A DNA stretch of 6,870 nucleotides from a virus (lineage: Duplodnaviria > Heunggongvirae > Uroviricota > Caudoviricetes). Positions 1 to 6,870 of this stretch are shown piece by piece. The notes below the pieces were generated by a model. It worked only from the letters and a program-made list of their open reading frames with translations, was not told the DNA's origin and did not search any database. How positions within the stretch are numbered: the first letter of the stretch is position 1; every line of letters begins with the position of its first letter. A program made the translations under genes and the position numbers. The DNA lies in IMG/VR virus record IMGVR_UViG_2681813268_000003, positions 1 through 6,870 of that record; one strand, 5' to 3'.

Positions 1-62
1 GGGTTACCCCCAAACGAATCGGAAAATCGATACTGGAAAAACTCTAACTCGGTGGCCAGTTT

Positions 63-565
63 TTGTTGACCACTTCAGTTACAAACGAGCGAGTAACAAA
101 AATACGCGAACTGAAACGAAAAGGTAACGCTGCCAGCGTTACACAAACGGATCAAAAAGCGTTACCAGAGGAAGAGGAAGAGGAAGAGGAAGAGGAAGAG
201 GAAGAGGAAGAGGAAGATCTAAATACTGATCTCCCCCTCGCCAAAAACGAGCGTCTAAAAAATTCGAGCCGGAGGCTATTGAGCTGCCCGATTGGTTGCC
301 GGAAACACTCTGGCATGAGTGGGTCCGGTTCAGACAGGCATTGCGAAAACCGATTCGAACGGAGCAGGGCGCTAACGGGGCGATACGGGAACTGGAAAAA
401 TTCCGTCAGCAGGGTTTTACACCTGAGCAGGTGATTCGACACAGCATCGCCAATGAATACCAGGGCCTGTTCGCGCCGAAAGGTGTTCGGCCTGAGACGT
501 TGCTCCGACAGGTTAACACCGTCTCGTTGCCGGACAGTGCGATCCCGCCAGGCTTCAGGGGGTAA
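63..565 (+). pseudogene. DnaT-like primosomal/replication protein, disrupted. The C-terminal domain (about 230..565, frame 2) is intact; the upstream part including the poly-Glu tract is in frame 3, and all three frames have stops before nt 127
   Basis: Frame-2 translation ends ...VNTVSLPDSAIPPGFRG, which matches my recollection of the E. coli DnaT C-terminus (...VNTVSEPDSQIPPGFRG). Gene sits immediately 5' of a DnaC-like gene (stop 563-565, next ATG 572), as in dnaT-dnaC. Frames 3 and 2 are joined by a 1-nt shift at the C5 run 233-237; adding one C gives a continuous ORF 63..565. Only TTG starts are available at 63/66. Confidence 0.5.
168..215 (+). repeat. (GAGGAA)x8 perfect hexanucleotide repeat encoding 16 consecutive Glu in frame 3
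   Basis: Direct reading of the sequence: 48 nt of uninterrupted GAG GAA codons. Confidence 0.95.
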
Positions 566-571
566 CGGACC

Positions 572-1318
572 ATGAAAAATATTGCGACAGGCGGCGTTCT
601 GGAACGCATCCGCCGACTGACCCCGCCACATGTAACCGCCCCATTCAGAACGGTAGCGGAGTGGCGCGAGTGGCAACTTGCTGAAGGCCAGAAACGTAGC
701 GAGGAGATCAACCGCCTGAATCGCCAGTTGCGGGTGGAAAAAATTCTGAATCGCTCAGGCATCCAGCCGTTGCACCGTAAATGCTCGTTTGCGAATTACC
801 AGGTGCAGAACGACGGCCAGCGATACGCGTTAAGCCAGGCGAAATCCATCGCCGATGAACTGATGACCGGGTGTACAAATTTTGCGTTCAGCGGAAAACC
901 TGGTACCGGGAAGAATCACTTAGCGGCAGCTATCGGGAATCGCCTGCTGAAAGACGGTCAGACAGTGATTGTGGTTACCGTGGCTGATGTTATGAGCGCC
1001 CTGCACGCCAGCTATGACGACGGGCAGTCAGGCGAAAAATTTTTGCGGGAGCTGTGCGAAGTGGATCTGCTGGTTCTTGATGAAATTGGCATTCAGCGCG
1101 AGACGAAAAACGAGCAGGTGGTGCTGCACCAGATTGTTGATCGCCGGACAGCGTCGATGCGCAGCGTGGGGATGCTGACAAACCTGAACTATGAGGTGAT
1201 GAAAACATTGCTCGGCGAGCGGGTGATGGATCGCATGGTCATGAACGGCGGGCGCTGGGTGAATTTTAACTGGGAGAGCTGGCGTCCGAATGTTAGCCAT
1301 TCGAGGGTTGTTAAGTAG
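572..1318 (+). CDS. DnaC-like replicative helicase loader (AAA+ ATPase)
   Basis: 248-aa ORF with Walker A FSGKPGTGKNHLAAAIG and Walker B DLLVLDEIG. Sequence closely resembles E. coli DnaC as I recall it (GKPGTGKNHLAAAI..., LLGERVMDRM...). Starts 7 nt after the DnaT-like stop. Confidence 0.9.
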   Translation: MKNIATGGVLERIRRLTPPHVTAPFRTVAEWREWQLAEGQKRSEEINRLNRQLRVEKILNRSGIQPLHRKCSFANYQVQNDGQRYALSQAKSIADELMTGCTNFAFSGKPGTGKNHLAAAIGNRLLKDGQTVIVVTVADVMSALHASYDDGQSGEKFLRELCEVDLLVLDEIGIQRETKNEQVVLHQIVDRRTASMRSVGMLTNLNYEVMKTLLGERVMDRMVMNGGRWVNFNWESWRPNVSHSRVVK

Positions 1319-1332
1319 TTTCAGGAGGATTT

Positions 1333-1755
1333 ATGGCGAAACCTTTTACTCCCGAACAGCGGGAAGAACTGAAGACGCGAATTGTGGAACTCGTGCATCA
1401 GGACGGTCGGGTCACGATTCGGCAGTTGTCAGATGAAACAGGTATCAGTCGTGCGTCTGTCGGTCGCTTATGCATAGAACTGGTCGCAAGTGGTGATGTA
1501 TATAATTCTGGCTACGGCTTATTCCCGTCTGAACAGGCTCGCAAGGACTGGCAAAGCGCCCGCAAAAAACTCTCGAGAGTAAAGGTGAGGAAACCGGTTG
1601 TTGTTGATCCGGACCTTATCTGGTCATTACCTGACGGAGAAATACGCCGCTACGACAGGCGCCTGAATATAATCTGTCGCGAGTGCCGGAAGAGCGAAGC
1701 TATGCAGCGTGTACTGGCTTTCTATCAGGGTAATTTTCAGGAGGCGATACTGTGA
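1333..1755 (+). CDS. Small putative DNA-binding protein with N-terminal winged-helix/HTH-like segment; function unknown
   Basis: 140-aa ORF with strong SD AGGAGG (1323-1328) before ATG 1333. N-terminus (...VTIRQLSDETGISRASVGRL...) looks like an HTH; basic C-terminus with CRECRK. No family confidently recognised. Confidence 0.7.
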   Translation: MAKPFTPEQREELKTRIVELVHQDGRVTIRQLSDETGISRASVGRLCIELVASGDVYNSGYGLFPSEQARKDWQSARKKLSRVKVRKPVVVDPDLIWSLPDGEIRRYDRRLNIICRECRKSEAMQRVLAFYQGNFQEAIL

Positions 1756-1812
1756 ATGAAATTAGCTATCAGGCTTCAATTACCGCTGGCATTCGCATCA
1801 AAGGAGAGGAGC

Positions 1813-2169
1813 ATGGAAATAAAACCAGAAGATGAGTTAAGCAATATTGTTTTATTTCCGGTAAAAGAGGATAACCCTCGTAATCAGGTTAATTTTCTTT
1901 ATGAGCCATCGGAAAGACCATATTGCCATCACGCCTCTGTACGGGTTGACGAAAAAGAGCGTCAGGTCCGCTGTAAAATCTGCGGTGCGGTTGTGGAGCC
2001 GTTTGACTGGATGCTCTCTGTGGCAAAAAGAGAAACCAGACTGGCAGATGATGTAAGGCTATTGCGCCAGGAGGAACAGGAAAGGCGGAGAAATATAGAA
2101 AAGCTGATACAGATTGAGCGTAACGCGAAAGCGCGGATACGCAGGGCGACAAAATCCAGAACTGAATAA
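1813..2169 (+). CDS. Zinc-ribbon-like protein with C-terminal basic coiled-coil; function unknown. Alternative start at ATG 1756
   Basis: ORF 1756..2169; internal ATG 1813 has a strong SD (AAGGAGAGGAG 1801-1811). Cys/His motif YCHH...CKICG followed by a charged helical tail (RLADDVRLLRQEEQERRRNIEKLIQIERNAKARIRR). Confidence 0.65.
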   Translation: MEIKPEDELSNIVLFPVKEDNPRNQVNFLYEPSERPYCHHASVRVDEKERQVRCKICGAVVEPFDWMLSVAKRETRLADDVRLLRQEEQERRRNIEKLIQIERNAKARIRRATKSRTE

Positions 2170-2255
2170 TTAAATTTAGCACTGTTAAAAATTTAATCCT
2201 TAACCGGAGGGATTTCTGCACCCTCAAATCATCAGGAGACCACCCGAAAGGGCGG
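1942..2255 (+). repeat. Copy A of a 314-bp near-exact direct repeat (zinc-ribbon gene 3' half plus downstream intergenic); partner at 4185..4498
   Basis: Base-by-base comparison: identical except 2242 a vs 4485 g. A further 13 bp (1928-1940) match 4166-4178 just before the N gap. Confidence 0.95.
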
Positions 2256-2316
2256 GGAGCAGTCACACATCTGTTTCCGATAGCCCCGTTCTAATGCTAC
2301 ACTCTTTGATATTTTT

Positions 2317-3003
2317 ATGACCCCAATAAACATATTTATGACAGTTGCTGATTTCAAACGGCCCAAATTGGAGCTCCCAAACGGGGCAAACAAACTACTA
2401 CTGCACTCTTGCTGTGCTCCATGTTCCGGTGAGGTGATGGAGGCGCTTCAGGCCTCGGGAATCGACTACACCATCTTTTTCTACAACCCGAACATTCATC
2501 CTCAGAAAGAGTATTTAATTCGTAAGGATGAGAATATTCGCTTTGCTGAACAACACGGCGTGCCGTTTATTGATGCTGATTACGACACAGACAACTGGTT
2601 TGAACGAGCCAAAGGAATGGAATGGGAGCCCGAACGAGGGATCCGTTGCACCATGTGTTTTGACATGCGTTTTGAGCGGACAGCGCTGTACGCCGCTGAA
2701 AATGGTTTCAGTGTGATCAGCAGTTCACTGGGCATTTCACGCTGGAAAAATATGCAGCAGGTTAACGACTGTGGGCGGCGAGCCGTCGCGCATTATCCGG
2801 GCATGGTGTACTGGGATTATAACTGGCGCAAGCAGGGCGGCTCGTCCCGTATGATTGAAATCAGCAAGCGCGAAAAATTCTATCAGCAGGAATATTGTGG
2901 CTGTGTGTATTCTCTGCGCGATACCAATCTACACCGCAAATCTCAGGGACGCCCTCTTATCAAAATTGGTCAACTCCACTACGGTAAAGAAGAGAAGGAG
3001 TGA
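2317..3003 (+). CDS. queH: QueH-like protein (DUF208 family, putative B12-independent epoxyqueuosine reductase)
   Basis: 228-aa ORF with N-proximal [11 protein letters not shown] motif and additional conserved Cys (CTMCFD, EYCGCVY), which I recognise as DUF208/QueH hallmarks. No obvious SD; alternative start ATG 2338. Confidence 0.7.
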
Positions 3004-3024
3004 TTTTATGGGGCACCTTTCTGA

Positions 3025-3054
3025 TTGATTTCATATTGGCGAGGTAAGTAGAAT
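3025..3054 (+). promoter_or_regulatory. Putative sigma70 promoter of hok/mok mRNA copy 1 (TTGATT -18- TAGAAT)
   Basis: -35-like TTGATT 3025-3030 and -10-like TAGAAT 3049-3054; predicted start near 3060, just before the tac-like element. Confidence 0.4.
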
Positions 3055-3057
3055 GAC

Positions 3058-3072
3058 TGCGGGTGCTTGAGG
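3058..3072 (+). promoter_or_regulatory. tac-like 5' element of hok mRNA copy 1 (TGCGGGTGCTTGAGG), complementary to the fbi-like 3' element at 3443..3458
   Basis: 15 bp pair with 3443-3458 (CCTCAACGCACCCGCA) with one bulged C. Same 5'/3' fold-back architecture as described for plasmid R1 hok mRNA. Copy 2 equivalents at 6400-6414 and 6779-6794. Confidence 0.55.
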
Positions 3073-3104
3073 CTATCTGCTTCAGGCATGAACACCAAAA
3101 GGCA

Positions 3105-3182
3105 GATAGAGAAAAGCCCCAGTTAACATTACGCGTCCGGCAAGACGCTTAACATTAATCTGAGGCCAATTTCATGCTTTGC
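3105..3182 (-). ncRNA. Putative Sok-like antisense RNA of hok locus 1 (extent approximate)
   Basis: Inferred by analogy to hok/sok. Minus strand has -35-like TTGCCT (complement of 3212-3217) and weak -10-like TAACCT (complement of 3189-3194) with 17-nt spacing, pointing transcription antisense across the mok start (3174). 3' end not defined. Confidence 0.25.
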
Positions 3183-3386
3183 ACATGTAGGTTAGCCTCT
3201 TACATGCCGAAAGGCAAGGAGAAGCAGGCTATGAAGCAGCAAAAGGCGATGTTAATCGCCCTGATCGTCATCTGTTTAACCGTCATAGTGACGGCACTGG
3301 TAACGAGGAAAGACCTCTGTGAGGTACGAATCCGAACCGGCCAGACGGAGGTCGCTGTCTTCGTAGACTACGAATCCAGGAAGTAA
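3174..3386 (+). CDS. mok: Mok-like regulatory ORF, in frame with and containing hok (70 aa)
   Basis: ATG 3174, same frame as hok. Same in-frame arrangement as I recall for E. coli MokC/HokC. Confidence 0.5.
   Translation: MLCTCRLASYMPKGKEKQAMKQQKAMLIALIVICLTVIVTALVTRKDLCEVRIRTGQTEVAVFVDYESRK
3231..3386 (+). CDS. hok: Hok/Gef-family type I toxin (51 aa, single TM helix)
   Basis: MKQQKAMLIALIVICLTVIVTALVTRKDLCEVRIRTGQTEVAVFVDYESRK is near-identical to recalled HokD/HokC sequences. SD AAGGAG 3215-3220 before ATG 3231. Confidence 0.9.
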   Translation: MKQQKAMLIALIVICLTVIVTALVTRKDLCEVRIRTGQTEVAVFVDYESRK

Positions 3387-3463
3387 GAGTGACCGGGCGG
3401 GGAGCTGATCCCATCCCCGCCCACCTCTGATGTGTCAGGCATCCTCAACGCACCCGCACTTAA

Positions 3464-3506
3464 CCCGCCCATCGCTGTGATCTCTCAGCGTTTCGGCGGG
3501 TTTTTT
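3464..3506 (+). terminator. Rho-independent terminator / 3' end of hok mRNA copy 1
   Basis: Two-tier hairpin: CCCGCC 3464-3469 pairs GGCGGG 3495-3500; inner CGCTG 3473-3477 pairs CAGCG 3486-3490; followed by T6 3501-3506. Confidence 0.7.
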
Positions 3507-3526
3507 GTTGTTTATTTCCGGTGAAT

Positions 3527-3554
3527 TTGATTCGCGCACCTTCGCAGATAGAAT
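3527..3554 (+). promoter_or_regulatory. Putative sigma70 promoter (TTGATT -16- TAGAAT) upstream of the 95-aa ORF
   Basis: TTGATT 3527-3532 and TAGAAT 3549-3554, located just after the hok1 terminator. Confidence 0.4.
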
Positions 3555-3635
3555 CGACTCACTTAAGTAGCGCGCAGGGAGAAGAGGGATGGACCCCGAA
3601 CAGGGGAGAGCTATTTATCTGGAAGGATTCTGAAG

Positions 3636-3923
3636 ATGAAAATCGAAGAATTGCGTGAAATTTTTAGTGAAAATGGCCTCTATGCTGTGCGCGTTGAGAA
3701 TGGAGCGATTGTCAGCCATTGCCGCATTAGATGTTTGCAATCTCAACAAAGGAAGAGCGGTGCTGTGTTATTTTATTTTTGTAATGGACTTCTGACGGAC
3801 GGTTTTATTTTGCGTGAGGACGAATTTGTCACATCATTACGGGTTTTGAAAGAGATTGGTTTTAAGGCTGGTTTTCTGCTTTTGCTGAAGAATAAACTCA
3901 TCTACAATCTTGAGCAGGATTGA
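3636..3923 (+). CDS. Hypothetical protein (95 aa)
   Basis: ORF with SD GGAAGGA 3621-3627, 8 nt before ATG 3636. No recognised motif. Confidence 0.55.
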   Translation: MKIEELREIFSENGLYAVRVENGAIVSHCRIRCLQSQQRKSGAVLFYFCNGLLTDGFILREDEFVTSLRVLKEIGFKAGFLLLLKNKLIYNLEQD

Positions 3924-3961
3924 ACTCCTGCTGTGTAACACCGTGCCACCGGAGAAAGCCG

Positions 3962-4178
3962 ATGGCACATATACAACTGGTCAAACAAACCTCTTCCGGA
4001 TTACTTCTCCCGGCGACGCCGGAGAGTTGCGATTTTCTGCATCAAATCAAAATAGGTGAGTGGATACACGCAGACTTTAAGCGTGTGTGTAACTACGCAT
4101 TCCACAAGCGTTTTTTCAAACTCCTGCAACTGGGTTTCGATTACTGGACTCCGGTCGGTGGGGCGATCACGCCTCTGT
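3962..4178 (+). CDS. Phage nin-region protein, 3'-truncated at the N gap (possibly DUF1367-like, tentative)
   Basis: ATG 3962 preceded by GGAGA 3951-3955. Translation MAHIQLVKQTSSGLLLPATPESCDFLHQIKIGEWIHADFKRVCNYAFHKRFFKLLQLGFDYWTPVGG... runs into the N run at 4179. Family assignment is from memory only. Confidence 0.5.
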
Positions 4179-4184
4179 NNNNNN
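4179..4184. other. Run of 6 N: assembly/scaffold gap of unknown true length
   Basis: Literal nnnnnn in the sequence; flanks correspond to positions 1940 and 1942 of the upstream repeat copy. Confidence 0.95.
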
Positions 4185-4412
4185 CGGGTTGACGAAAAAG
4201 AGCGTCAGGTCCGCTGTAAAATCTGCGGTGCGGTTGTGGAGCCGTTTGACTGGATGCTCTCTGTGGCAAAAAGAGAAACCAGACTGGCAGATGATGTAAG
4301 GCTATTGCGCCAGGAGGAACAGGAAAGGCGGAGAAATATAGAAAAGCTGATACAGATTGAGCGTAACGCGAAAGCGCGGATACGCAGGGCGACAAAATCC
4401 AGAACTGAATAA
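4185..4412 (+). CDS. 5'-truncated second copy of the zinc-ribbon/coiled-coil protein (3' 228 nt identical to 1942..2169)
   Basis: Frame-3 translation from the gap edge (RVDEKERQVRCKICGAVVEPFDWML...ATKSRTE) is identical to the C-terminus of the 1813..2169 product. Confidence 0.5.
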   Translation, partial: RVDEKERQVRCKICGAVVEPFDWMLSVAKRETRLADDVRLLRQEEQERRRNIEKLIQIERNAKARIRRATKSRTE

Positions 4413-4498
4413 TTAAATTTAGCACTGTTAAAAATTTAATCCTTAACCGGAGGGATTTCTGCACCCTCAAATCATCAGGAGACCGCCCGAAAGGGCGG
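4185..4498 (+). repeat. Copy B of the 314-bp direct repeat (partner 1942..2255)
   Basis: See copy A. Ends in a GAAA-loop hairpin (4482-4499) that is perfect here but mismatched in copy A. Confidence 0.95.
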
Positions 4499-4504
4499 TA
4501 ATGA

Positions 4505-4723
4505 ATGGTTACATTATTTAGAAAAAAATATCCGCGAAAGAGTAGAACAACAGAATTCCTGTTTCTCATTCTGTTTATCGTGTTGATGACACCGATATCC
4601 CCGCTAATTTTTGTCTGGATAATCGGAAAAATAATTGAGCCAGTTATTGAATTGTATAACGACGTGGTATGGGCGTCATTCAACACACTGCACAATAAAA
4701 TTAATCCGTATAAGGAAAGCTGA
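4505..4723 (+). CDS. Small hydrophobic (membrane) protein, 72 aa, AT-rich
   Basis: ORF with hydrophobic core FLFLILFIVLMTPISPLIFVWIIGKII. Stop 4721-4723 is 1 nt before the HNH start 4725. Markedly AT-rich compared with its neighbours. Weak SD. Confidence 0.4.
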   Translation: MVTLFRKKYPRKSRTTEFLFLILFIVLMTPISPLIFVWIIGKIIEPVIELYNDVVWASFNTLHNKINPYKES

Positions 4724-4724
4724 T

Positions 4725-5090
4725 ATGGCACTGACGAAAAAACAACGTGCAGAACTGCGCATGAAGTTCGGTGGTCGCTGCGCTTATTGCGGCTGCGAAC
4801 TTGGCGAAAAGTGGCATGCAGACCATGTAAAACCGGTCATTCGTTTTGATGGAAATATGCTTCACCAGGAACGTGACGATATATCCAACATGGTACCAGC
4901 ATGCCACCCATGCAATCTGCACAAGCATTGCAGTAGCCTGGAAGATTATCGACGAATTATCAGTGATGGTCGTCGTGAATTCCTTGCGTCCGGGAAAGGC
5001 AAAGCGCTGGTTCGTATGGGATTGGTTGAAATGAAATCTGACCCGGTTGTGTTCTGGTTTGAAAAATATCAAGAAGGGGCTACGGCATGA
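4725..5090 (+). CDS. HNH endonuclease-domain protein (121 aa)
   Basis: SD TAAGGAAAG before ATG 4725. HNH signature CAYCGCEL...WHADHVKPV...NMVPACHPCNLHKH. The tool ORF from 4635 has no RBS support. Confidence 0.85.
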   Translation: MALTKKQRAELRMKFGGRCAYCGCELGEKWHADHVKPVIRFDGNMLHQERDDISNMVPACHPCNLHKHCSSLEDYRRIISDGRREFLASGKGKALVRMGLVEMKSDPVVFWFEKYQEGATA

Positions 5091-5752
5091 CCACTATTAC
5101 CAAAGAGCGACTGCAATGGCTGGCTAACATTTCTGGCCGCGATGATATTGACGATATAGACGGCGGTGAAATTCGTGAACTGGCGCTTATCGCTCTGGCA
5201 TCACTGGAAGCAGAGCCTGTAGCGGAATGCATTGTTGAAGATGGGGGCATGTGTATTGACGGGTTCGGTGAGTATGTGGGTCACTCGCTGCCTGATGGAA
5301 TGCATGAGCTTTATGCTGCCCCGCGAATGCGACAACCTGATGGATGGAAAGCCGTAGCTGTAGCGTGGAAGGTGACGTTTACTCAAGTTGACCAGGAATC
5401 TAATACGTTCACTGCTATATATTTTGACAAAGCGGAAGTTGAGTGTTGGGTACGACTGCATAAAGCATGTGATTTTCGGGCAGATATAACACCGCTTTAC
5501 GCAGCGCCGGCAGTGCCGGTTGCAGTAAACGACGACATGGCTTACGCATTCCATCACGCACTGTCAGATTCATCGCTTGGCTCTGATGAAATCGAAGAAA
5601 TTAAAACCGGTTTGCGTGCTGCCTTTGCCAACGTCACTATCCAACCAGAGCCGATAGTGCCGGATGAAATCGGGCCAAACGATAGTAATACGTTTGATTA
5701 TGTTGATGGCTGGAACGCCTGCCGCGCTGCCATGCTTAAGGGAGATAAATAA
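5087..5752 (+). CDS. Hypothetical protein (221 aa), acidic N-terminus, two LYAAP-containing segments
   Basis: ATG 5087 overlaps HNH stop (ATGA 5087-5090). Coding-like composition. No recognised family. Confidence 0.7.
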   Translation: MTTITKERLQWLANISGRDDIDDIDGGEIRELALIALASLEAEPVAECIVEDGGMCIDGFGEYVGHSLPDGMHELYAAPRMRQPDGWKAVAVAWKVTFTQVDQESNTFTAIYFDKAEVECWVRLHKACDFRADITPLYAAPAVPVAVNDDMAYAFHHALSDSSLGSDEIEEIKTGLRAAFANVTIQPEPIVPDEIGPNDSNTFDYVDGWNACRAAMLKGDK

Positions 5753-6117
5753 TGATTAATCGAACCAAACTGGAGCACATTCTCGAATATGCCAGGCAGC
5801 AGAAATGTATTGGGCAACTTTGTAAAATTCCACCAGGAGATATGGTTGAAATCGTGGAAATGGCCATGCGTAAGGCTGGCAACTCTCCGGTAGCTCCGGC
5901 TGGCTGGATAAGCTGTAGTGATGCAGTTCCTGCTGAATATTGCGATGTGATTCTTCTCGATGATCTCGGGAATGTATTCCCCGGTTCCTGGGATAAGGTT
6001 TTTTGCCCCACTCGTGGCGGGAATAAGATGGCTTTTGTGGACAAAGACGGCGTTGAAGTAGAGAGCTCAACTCACTGGATGCCGCTACCGGAACCACCGC
6101 AGGAGGTGAATCAATGA
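5752..6117 (+). CDS. DUF551-like phage protein (121 aa)
   Basis: ATG 5752 overlaps previous stop (TAATG). C-terminal ...THWMPLPEPPQE and WISCSDAVPAEY... resemble the DUF551 pattern found in lambdoid nin regions (from memory). Confidence 0.7.
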   Translation: MINRTKLEHILEYARQQKCIGQLCKIPPGDMVEIVEMAMRKAGNSPVAPAGWISCSDAVPAEYCDVILLDDLGNVFPGSWDKVFCPTRGGNKMAFVDKDGVEVESSTHWMPLPEPPQEVNQ

Positions 6118-6197
6118 CCTGGCCTGAGGCATTCACCACGGTAGGAATTGCGATGGCGGTGGCGCTGGTGGTGTATTCGATTTGCCGTTGGGGTTAA
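6114..6197 (+). CDS. Putative 27-aa hydrophobic micropeptide (MTWPEAFTTVGIAMAVALVVYSICRWG)
   Basis: Below the ORF-track length cutoff. ATG 6114 overlaps DUF551 stop (ATGA), strong SD AGGAGG 6101-6106 at 7-nt spacing, stops 7 nt before a strong terminator. Confidence 0.4.
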   Translation: MTWPEAFTTVGIAMAVALVVYSICRWG

Positions 6198-6207
6198 CAA
6201 ACAAAAA

Positions 6208-6233
6208 CCCCGGATTGATGGTCCGGGGTTTTT
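6208..6233 (+). terminator. Rho-independent terminator closing the HNH-containing operon
   Basis: CCCCGGA 6208-6214 pairs TCCGGGG 6222-6228, 7-nt loop, then T5 6229-6233. Confidence 0.75.
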
Positions 6234-6445
6234 GAAGGAAACAAAACAGAAACAGCAATTGCCGTTACCTGTTGTTACCATGGCAAGTAAACGTATCTCA
6301 GGCGAGCGCATTGCGCCGTTCTGACGCAGATAAACTAGCCTGGATAGATGGTGCTGGCAATAAAAAATAGCGTTTTCTTATCGGTGTCGGTAAGATTGCT
6401 GCGGGTGCTTGAGGCTGTCTGCCTCGGGTATGTCACTGTAAGGCA

Positions 6446-6523
6446 GACAGAGAAAAGCCCCAGTTAACATTACGCGTCCTGCAAGACGCTTAACATTAAT
6501 CTGAGGCCCAATCTATGTCTCAC
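6446..6523 (-). ncRNA. Putative Sok-like antisense RNA of hok locus 2 (extent approximate)
   Basis: By analogy only; the same minus-strand hexamers as locus 1 are conserved (complement of AGGCAA and AGGTTA). Confidence 0.2.
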
Positions 6524-6727
6524 AAATGTAGGTTAGCCTCTTACGTGCCGAAAGGCAAGGAGAAGCAGGCTATGAAGCAGCAAAAGGCGATGTTAATCGC
6601 CCTGATCGTCATCTGTTTAACCGTCATTGTGACGGCACTGGTAACGAGGAAAGACCTCTGCGAGGTACGAATCCGAATCGGCCAGACGGAGGTCGCTGTT
6701 TTCGTAGACTACGAATCTAGAGAGTAA
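6515..6727 (+). CDS. mok: Mok-like regulatory ORF, in frame with and containing hok copy 2 (70 aa)
   Basis: ATG 6515, same architecture as locus 1. N-terminus differs (MSHKCRLASYV vs MLCTCRLASYM). Confidence 0.5.
   Translation: MSHKCRLASYVPKGKEKQAMKQQKAMLIALIVICLTVIVTALVTRKDLCEVRIRIGQTEVAVFVDYESRE
6572..6727 (+). CDS. hok: Hok/Gef-family type I toxin, second paralog (51 aa)
   Basis: MKQQKAMLIALIVICLTVIVTALVTRKDLCEVRIRIGQTEVAVFVDYESRE. Differs from copy 1 at T35I and the C-terminal residue. SD AAGGAG before ATG 6572. Confidence 0.9.
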   Translation: MKQQKAMLIALIVICLTVIVTALVTRKDLCEVRIRIGQTEVAVFVDYESRE

Positions 6728-6799
6728 GAGTGACCAGGCGGGAGAGTAATCTCCCGCCACCTTTGATGTGTCAGGCATCCTCAACGCACCCGCACTTAA

Positions 6800-6819
6800 C
6801 CCGTTTCGGCGGTTTTTTT
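6800..6819 (+). terminator. Degenerate terminator of hok copy 2 (T7 tract with minimal stem)
   Basis: Relative to copy 1, about 25 nt of the hairpin are missing; CCG/CGG with a 3-nt loop remains, followed by T7 6813-6819. Confidence 0.3.
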
Positions 6820-6870
6820 GGTAATGACTCCAACTTATTGATAGTGTTTTATGTTCAGATAATGCCCGAT

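Follow-up and report, generated by a model that had tools for sequence, protein, structure and literature searches.

A Repeated LYAAP Motif as the Probable Protein-Level Frame of Two Different Cassettes in a Mosaic Prophage Accessory Protein

Introduction

Why should the pentapeptide LYAAP occur twice in a phage protein of 221 amino acids (aa)? The question is raised by a gene located at positions 5087-5752 of the IMG/VR virus record IMGVR_UViG_2681813268_000003 (Caudoviricetes), of which we analyzed positions 1 to 6,870. This whole stretch of 6,870 nucleotides (nt), hereafter the window, is by its sequence a piece of a lambdoid (Rac-like) Escherichia coli prophage. The open reading frame (ORF) of interest lies on the + strand, starts with ATG and includes its stop codon in the interval given, and its product carries LYAAP at aa 75-79 (nt 5309-5323) and again at aa 137-141 (nt 5495-5509). 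A preliminary description had correctly reported the ORF, the two copies of the motif and an acidic N-terminus (DDIDDIDGGE), and had suggested that the repetition hinted at an internal duplication or at two similar modules.

We conclude that the repeated LYAAP is, as far as the sequences of the relatives tell, the 3' frame shared by two different cassettes. We consider it rather probable that the gene is an intact and probably non-enzymatic early accessory gene, representing a rare combination of modules in a large mosaic family, and that LYAAP is a cassette frame maintained at the level of the protein.

Results and Discussion

Modules and Frames of the Protein

The protein could be divided into a leader, two cassettes (B and C) and two C-terminal modules (D1 and D2), separated by connectors and all encoded on the + strand. 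The leader (5087-5224, aa 1-46) opens with a conserved MTTITKER and closes with a likewise conserved IALASLEAEPVA, whose last residues form the 5' frame EPVA; the acidic, helical segment between them is variable. In a low-confidence model its helices occupy residues 6-15 and 27-41, and a 9-nt micro-tandem repeat (GATATAGAC, 2.1 copies at 5144-5162) encodes the DID-DID of the acidic segment. Relatives with alternative leaders have only the two ends in common with it. Cassette B (5225-5323, aa 47-79, ECIVEDGGMCIDGFGEYVGHSLPDGMHELYAAP) ends in HELYAAP, the first LYAAP being its 3' frame; it is optional in relatives, and in two of them (P0044 and P0054) it also stands behind an Ead_Ea22 N-terminus. 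A connector (5324-5359, aa 80-91, RMRQPDGWKAVA), which holds the second copy of CCTGATGGA (PDG), leads to cassette C (5360-5509, aa 92-141, VAWKVTFTQ...ITPLYAAP), predicted to be a small beta-beta-alpha-beta domain and also present in gp70 of Stx phage 75/02.

Cassette C ends with the second LYAAP, followed by a Pro/Ala/Val linker (5501-5524, AAP-AVP-VA) that contains another 9-nt micro-tandem repeat (5501-5519). The AVPVA following this LYAAP (aa 142-146) regenerates a PVA 5' frame for module D. The latter comprises D1 (5525-5635, aa 147-183, VNDDMAYAFHHALSDSSLGSDEIEEIKTGLRAAFANV), predicted to be helical, a Pro-rich connector (5636-5671, aa 184-195, TIQPEPIVPDEI) in which P192 is nearly invariant, and D2 (5672-5749, aa 196-221, GPNDSNTFDYVDGWNACRAAMLKGDK), which ends in WNACRAAMLKGDK and in which W209, C212, and M216 are nearly invariant. 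The WNACRAAML of D2 corresponds in relatives to the junction with further C-terminal modules, such as DUF551. The Val/Ala/Pro-rich stretch reported to follow each LYAAP is clear after the second copy (AVPVAV) and only loosely present after the first (RMRQPDGWKAVAVAW).

A word-indexed protein search with the complete protein returned 3,289 matches, mostly covering 35-60% of the query, many of them annotated DUF551, ead/Ea22-like or DUF550. From 258 relatives we extracted the cassette cores as the segments running from a PVA-type motif to the next LYxx[P/Q/S/A/K]; the EPVA...LYxxP cassette family thus obtained is defined in this analysis and corresponds to no curated family. At least about 12 unrelated cores turned out to have EPVA[W/Y/E/F] on one side and, on the other, (P)LYxx[P/Q/A] with a Pro/Ala/Val linker behind it. 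Besides B and C, both of which have this format (aa 44-79 and 89-141), at least ten more cores unrelated in sequence have the same ends, for example EPVAWMRDDADGREYNARNEFSGGGGGVPLYATP, EPVAWTDEEELRDV...RRVIPLYHVP, EPVAYMWDSERKD...GGRVVPLYTAP, and EPVAWLYSDNGLG...YVQPLYIAQ, and some relatives (e.g., P0133 and P0146) carry two or three framed cassettes in tandem. When we compared profiles of five cassette families with hhalign, only the frames aligned, the cores remaining below 1% probability.

The frame motifs were also strongly enriched. LYxxP occurred 89 times against 3.4 expected by composition in the 120 closest matches and 63 times against 4.1 expected (about 15-fold excess) in 149 representatives at 50% identity, these sequences being related and the counts accordingly not independent; in the same representatives, P[VI]A occurred 117 times against 27 expected. 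The number of LYxxP copies varied from 0 to 3 per protein. In a family alignment of 35 sequences, L137 and Y138 were among only six columns conserved at 90% or more. The homologues keep the motif, and its loss from them, which the preliminary description would have held against the repeat, was not what we observed.

Some variants of these regions deserve mention in their own right. In a Shigella variant (P0006), the 15 aa lying between the two identical copies of CCTGATGGA (PDG), including the first LYAAP, are missing (5291-5344), and another Shigella variant (P0002) has one additional AAP unit in the 9-nt repeat of the linker. The PDGW of the connector (5336-5347, aa 84-87) is the usual junction before DUF551 (SPVTPDGWISCSERMP in relatives and SPVAPAGWISCSD in the next ORF of the window, 5752-6117) and may be the scar of an earlier DUF551 fusion. 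We also looked for a likeness to WW domains in the W...YxxP cassettes (PVAWMRDDADGREYNARNE...PLYATP) and abandoned this candidate, since neither the protein studied here nor 10 diverse relatives matched PF00397.

Mosaic Distribution of the Modules

The modules of the protein were found independently of each other in hundreds of prophage proteins of E. coli, Shigella, and Salmonella annotated as DUF551, Ea22 or EaA proteins. When the presence or absence of five modules was scored in the 258 relatives, we obtained 26 combinations, with the same order from N- to C-terminus in all but one architecture; the complete arrangement (leader, B, C, D1, D2) was present in only five relatives. A search for related loci with the single protein matched two near-identical loci.

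Three kinds of comparison placed the limits of similarity at the module junctions. In BLAST alignments with the 120 best matches, high-scoring segment pairs ended at aa 46 (45 relatives, the boundary of the leader) and at aa 79-93 (aa 79 being the boundary of cassette B), and they started at aa 88 and at aa 136/137 (62 times), in front of D1, which is more widespread in the family than any other module. Among 5,426 complete E. coli genomes searched with the ORF by megablast, 2 contained it whole and 246 contained pieces of it. These DNA matches were bounded at ORF nt 126-137, 236 (end of cassette B), 274-277 (beginning of the cassette C matches), 413-442 (413-434 for the end of the cassette C matches), and 578-586 (in the Pro-rich connector), all corresponding to module junctions. 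Finally, tblastn against phage genomes matched aa 148-218, 88-138, and 44-81 in different phages and never all together, the module D matches being in phages with a gene annotated “EaA protein.”

The preliminary description had recognized no family. This holds for Pfam, NCBIfam, and PADLOC but not for PHROGs, in which six to seven families, all of them of unknown function, match the protein. PHROG 60, 12449, 5117, 660, 17148, and 3323 gave E-values from 2.6e-21 (phrog_60) to 1.4e-9, with 2.6e-19 for phrog_12449, and they tile the protein: phrog_3323 at aa 1-50, phrog_660 at aa 1-104, phrog_17148 at aa 93-133 (cassette C), phrog_12449 at aa 142-220, and phrog_5117 at aa 88-221. All of them are limited to a part of the sequence, and the full architecture is not captured by any one family.

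The family genes occupy several positions in their prophages. One relative (P0048) lies in a nin-type region directly behind a DUF4014 gene, without an HNH gene, and in two other cases (P0035 and P0065) the family gene follows an HNH gene within a CPS-53-like early region. Others are located in the exo-xis region, either fused to an Ead_Ea22 N-terminus (P0044) or adjoining an Ea22 gene. In the functional phage Stx 75/02, gp70 (leader, cassette C, and DUF551) is encoded two genes past ea22. Acidity is common to the family, with a mean of -7.6 charges per 100 aa and 99% of members negative.

One apparent relative of 2,728 aa from the search of representatives (P0139; 23 weakly matched stretches, E = 5.6e-32) was discarded; it is a surface-type protein with KPTFTAP tandem repeats, and its score is an artefact of accumulation and does not reflect homology.

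Structure Predictions

The AlphaFold2 model of the whole protein was poor, with a predicted local distance difference test (pLDDT) score of 50 and only aa 91-138 confident; cassette B obtained a pLDDT of 31-38. Modeled separately with 36 relatives, cassette C (aa 86-147) reached a pLDDT of 90.4 and a predicted template modeling score of 0.72, with strands at 91-100, 103-112, and 130-138 and a helix at 115-127. The last strand stops at L137-Y138, and the confidence collapses in AAPAVPVA. According to this model, the final beta-strand of cassette C would thus close with LY, and a flexible linker would begin at AAP.

In the PDB, Foldseek retrieved nothing below E = 0.29 with the whole-protein model and no match below E = 1.2 with cassette C. 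In BFVD, the matches were uncharacterized phage proteins only, several of which (about 50 aa) could be superposed at about 2 Å, cassette C being the probable site of the match. The inhibitors Dmd of T4/RB69, Gp2 of T7, and p56 of phage PZA are comparable to cassette C in size and beta/alpha topology; these were weak Foldseek matches (template modeling scores 0.46-0.54, E = 2-4, probability at most 0.38) that provide a lead and no evidence of homology or of a common function.

Alternative Explanations of the Repeated Motif

The frames could be conserved for the sake of the DNA instead of the protein, EPVA, LYxxP, and the linker being kept as short stretches of nucleotide homology for Red/RecET-type recombinases and not for structure. 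It would fit this explanation that the breakpoints of DNA similarity fall on the frames, that the junction at the 5' end of the gene (5040-5108) is kept despite replacement of the HNH gene, and that the micro-repeats of the linker vary in copy number. However, amino acids and not nucleotides are conserved. In the coding DNA of nine family genes, representing four cassette families, the frame Leu is encoded by CTT in families B and C, CTC in M1, and TTG in M2, the Tyr by TAT or TAC, and the Pro by CCG or CCT, and there are at least six codings of EPVA (GAG CCT GTA GCG; GAG CCG GTG GCA; GAA CCG GTG GCG; GAA CCA GTG GCG; GAG CCG GTT GCA; GAG CCG ATA GCA). This synonymous variation leaves no useful nucleotide homology between different cassettes and thus argues that the conservation is selected in the protein. 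Furthermore, no more than 5 nt in a row are identical between the gene's two LYAAP sites, too short a run for homologous exchange. We therefore consider conservation for DNA recombination unlikely.

Alternatively, (P)LYxxP could be a docking motif, exposed in flexible linkers as the ligand of a common host or phage partner and repeated for avidity, with the cassettes as cargo. Its conservation across unrelated cores, upstream of disordered Pro-rich sequence, and its variable copy number would be expected in that case. This explanation is nevertheless distinctly unlikely: L137-Y138 belong, in the confident model, to the last beta-strand of cassette C and not to the disordered part, 93 of the 149 representatives have no LYxxP and yet keep other modules, and no known motif class was matched, in an analysis whose tools could not test for one.

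If the repeat had arisen by internal tandem duplication, as first suggested, both of the segments ending in LYAAP would descend, with divergence, from a single ancestral domain. An exact repeated 5-mer of any kind appeared in only 1.9% of 20,000 shuffles of the protein, and each segment has a similar xVA frame before it and a linker after it. Yet the self-alignment was not significant, an outcome that the preliminary description had itself named as one of two signs against the repeat, the best Smith-Waterman score being 35 against 27.5 ± 4.7 for shuffled sequences, 17 of 200 of which reached 35 or more, and this best off-diagonal alignment falls outside the LYAAP segments. Comparison of the two segments with hhalign, as profiles of alignments built from relatives, gave a probability of 3.4% over the five LYxxP residues only, and with the end motifs trimmed no similarity was left (0.1%). 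The segments differ in length (33 and 50 aa), and each cassette occurs alone in many relatives, the same frame surrounding the dozen or so other unrelated cores. The codons of the first copy (CTT TAT GCT GCC CCG) and of the second (CTT TAC GCA GCG CCG) differ at all three variable synonymous positions, so there was no recent duplication of the DNA and the motif has been kept as amino acids. Duplication is thus very improbable and largely refuted already. The other suggestion, of two similar modules, survives in part: the segments share one cassette format, opening directly behind an (E)PVA/AVA frame and closing with LYxxP and a linker, but their cores are unrelated.

Chance recurrence of a pentapeptide without meaning, in a protein whose commonest residue is Ala (28/221) and which resembles itself no more than shuffled sequences do, has a negligible probability: the P value of a repeated 5-mer of any kind is about 0.019, and the family-wide enrichment, the near-invariant LY, and the fit to the module boundaries rule it out.

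Probable Function and Likeness to Known Systems

The reading that we favor, a mosaic accessory protein with frames kept at the protein level, can be put as follows. The protein would resemble beads on a string, with a helical leader ending in EPVA, the unrelated cassettes B and C, and helical D1 and D2 modules, joined by Pro/Ala/Val-rich linkers. LYAAP would occur twice because each inserted cassette closes with (P)LYxxP, that is, the end of a hydrophobic strand plus the first proline of a linker; each cassette would likewise open just past an (E)PVA/VAW frame. The frames would thus mark the limits of domains and be maintained by selection acting on the protein. Recombination itself would most likely proceed through long homologous flanks (leader, module D, and neighboring genes), and only those recombinants broken at domain boundaries would survive, as they would remain folded and in frame, so that gain, loss, and exchange of cassettes would leave their order unchanged. 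The protein would act by binding and not by catalysis, a step that goes beyond the modules, the frame common to the family, the breakpoints, the modeled fold of cassette C, and the synonymous variation observed here. We found no catalytic signature in it, and by analogy with lambda Ea22 and with the DUF551 protein YfdS (tolerance of oxidative stress) it may be an acidic, possibly oligomeric scaffold on which small, exchangeable domains are offered to proteins of the host or of competitors early in prophage development. As for a possible role as an acidic decoy or DNA mimic, what we observed is bulk acidity alone (net charge -22, isoelectric point 4.3).

Several points weigh against this reading. 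The scans of Pfam (to E ≤ 0.1), NCBIfam, and PADLOC gave no match for the protein (0 families in PADLOC, where the neighboring HNH protein alone gives weak PtuB-like matches), a sequence search of the PDB produced only noise (E about 1), and neither of the models had a significant Foldseek match in the PDB. The poor whole-protein model gives no support to a particular fold, or to folding at all, for cassette B, D1 and D2, and the statement that LY ends a strand is based on one cassette. The LYxxP counts come, as mentioned above, from related sequences. Finally, the protein has neither an Ead_Ea22 nor a DUF551 domain, which makes any functional analogy indirect.

The closest analogy is with Ea22 (PF13935), another group of early, non-essential lambdoid accessory genes with mosaic organization and acidic, swappable C-terminal domains. 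Ea22 genes have been described as mosaics whose C-terminal domains are acidic, with DUF551 as a portable domain (PMC10834534), and Ea22 proteins are oligomeric (PMC10834534, PMC7093339), share a +GE C-terminus and favor the lysogenic pathway despite high sequence diversity (PMC7093339). Three relatives (P0044, P0054, and P0133) join an Ead_Ea22 N-terminus to cassette B and module D, and many relatives end in K/R-G-E (KGE), the protein studied here ending in KGDK. The latter differs from Ea22, however, in having no Ead_Ea22 domain (no Pfam match), no long coiled coil, and no lambda C-terminal domain; its gene is located in a nin-type region, right of the replication genes and DUF977 and before hok and a Q-like region, and not in exo-xis; and the pro-lysogenic function has been tested in true Ea22 proteins only.

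Another likeness is to DUF551 proteins (PF04448), such as YfdS of CPS-53 and gp70 of Stx 75/02. Dozens of the closest relatives consist of a leader, module D (or cassette C), and DUF551, and they share leaders, junctions, and neighborhoods, including an upstream HNH gene. Deletion of yfdS makes cells sensitive to H2O2, and its overexpression contributes to inhibition of DnaA (PMC4776307); the protein studied here has no DUF551 profile match, and these phenotypes are not transferable to it. With P22-type EaA, the likeness concerns aa 148-218, which are 87-90% identical (tblastn) to phage genes annotated EaA.

Small domains on flexible Pro/Ala-rich linkers are found in the E. coli E2p lipoyl domains and in polyvalent phage proteins, and domain content can vary combinatorially among mobile elements. 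Those proteins have identifiable enzymatic or binding domains, whereas the modules described here have no known activity and the cassettes measure only about 30-50 aa.

A more ambitious version of our reading would make EPVA[W/Y]...(P)LYxxP an undescribed, universal “cassette holder,” a clasp at both ends of the insert by which temperate phages would exchange unrelated binding domains of 30-50 aa on one acidic scaffold. In that case, the family would amount to a natural combinatorial display of effectors against hosts and competitors, like a polyvalent protein in miniature, with each cassette having its own target in the host or in a rival phage. We regard this extension as rather unlikely. 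The gene is an ordinary accessory prophage gene, and the description of the frames may help annotation without pointing to a new kind of system.

For annotation, no single family name describes this protein and the hundreds like it. The labels DUF551, Ea22-like, EaA, and “dTDP-6-deoxy-L-hexose 3-O-methyltransferase” are spread over chimeras that share one module; the last of these, carried in NCBI by two relatives (P0055 and P0084), is almost certainly a propagated misannotation. The frames MTTITKER, IALASLEAEPVA, LYxxP with its linker, and WNACRAAML offer simple cut points at which the units could be classified singly. Should the cassettes indeed be binding domains independent of one another, the family would offer a compact case of domain-level mosaicism within a phage gene and a source of small host-targeting modules.

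Genomic Context of the Gene

RefSeq annotates the same ORF as a “hypothetical protein” (WP_000208061.1) in the prophage of E. coli FDAARGOS_944, which is 99.8% identical to the window over 4400-6400. The gene order in FDAARGOS_944 is a YdaU-like replication gene, a DnaC-like ATPase, DUF977, a small hypothetical protein, DUF4014, the HNH endonuclease, our gene, a DUF551 protein, hok/sok, and DUF1367/DUF1364/DUF1133, a Q-like region also following hok. The opposite-strand ORFs that cross the interval of the gene received no support, as conservation follows the + frame with synonymous changes.

The HNH endonuclease gene (4725-5090, + strand) encodes 121 aa from the ATG at 4725 (Pfam HNH E = 3.2e-6, phrog_2118 E = 4e-57), and the DUF551 ORF (5752-6117, + strand; Pfam DUF551 E = 3.4e-19) also encodes 121 aa and has a separate helical leader and a junction reading SPVAPAGW. 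Our gene overlaps both neighbors, sharing ATGA (its start codon and the HNH stop codon) with the one and TAATG (its TAA and the start codon of the DUF551 ORF) with the other, which makes it probable that the three are co-translated as one operon.

The link with HNH and DUF551 genes proposed in the preliminary description is real insofar as many relatives have DUF551 as a C-terminal fusion and this domain here forms a separate, adjacent and coupled ORF, but the link is facultative. The HNH gene, inserted between those for DUF4014 and the family protein, is optional, and some family loci do not have it. We rejected an obligatory functional link between the HNH gene and ours, given that family genes occur without HNH in both nin-type and exo-xis loci and that most loci that have DUF4014 and HNH in common with the window diverge about 20 nt into our gene, just past MTTITKE.

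By its exact position between DUF4014 and the family gene, the HNH gene resembles a free-standing homing endonuclease. The segment 5040-5108, comprising the last 47 nt or so of the upstream gene and the first 22 nt or so of ours (MTTITKE), is kept where HNH has been replaced and looks like a mosaic boundary junction. Downstream, an unannotated ORF at 6114-6197 encodes a hydrophobic peptide of 27 aa (MTWPEAFTTVGIAMAVALVVYSICRWG), its ATG overlapping the DUF551 stop codon (ATGA), and a 13-bp GC-rich hairpin between A/T runs (6202-6234) is likely a bidirectional terminator closing the operon.

Other Features of the Window

A run of six N at 4179-4184 is followed immediately by 300 nt (4185-4484) that repeat 1942-2241, where the 3' part of a zinc-ribbon ORF lies, with 100% identity. 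The window seems to link two prophage segments through a scaffold join or an assembly artefact, so that the true left context of our gene begins at 4185. One hok/sok toxin-antitoxin locus lies on each side of the join (3061-3386 and 6403-6727); the two are about 93% identical over 300 nt, with Rfam sok scores of 117 and 118 bits and Hok-like ORFs at 3174-3386 and 6515-6727. A QueH epoxyqueuosine reductase gene (2317-3003, Pfam E = 1.9e-65) stands among the prophage early genes and may be a queuosine-related moron. Near the left end, an (AGAGGA)x8.5 repeat (167-217) encodes about 17 Glu in the YdaU-like replication gene (ORFs 63-434 and 296-565). The poly-Glu and C-terminal parts of this gene are in different frames, and the reference genome annotates two partial pseudogene pieces; the split may be due to slippage in the repeat or to an assembly error.

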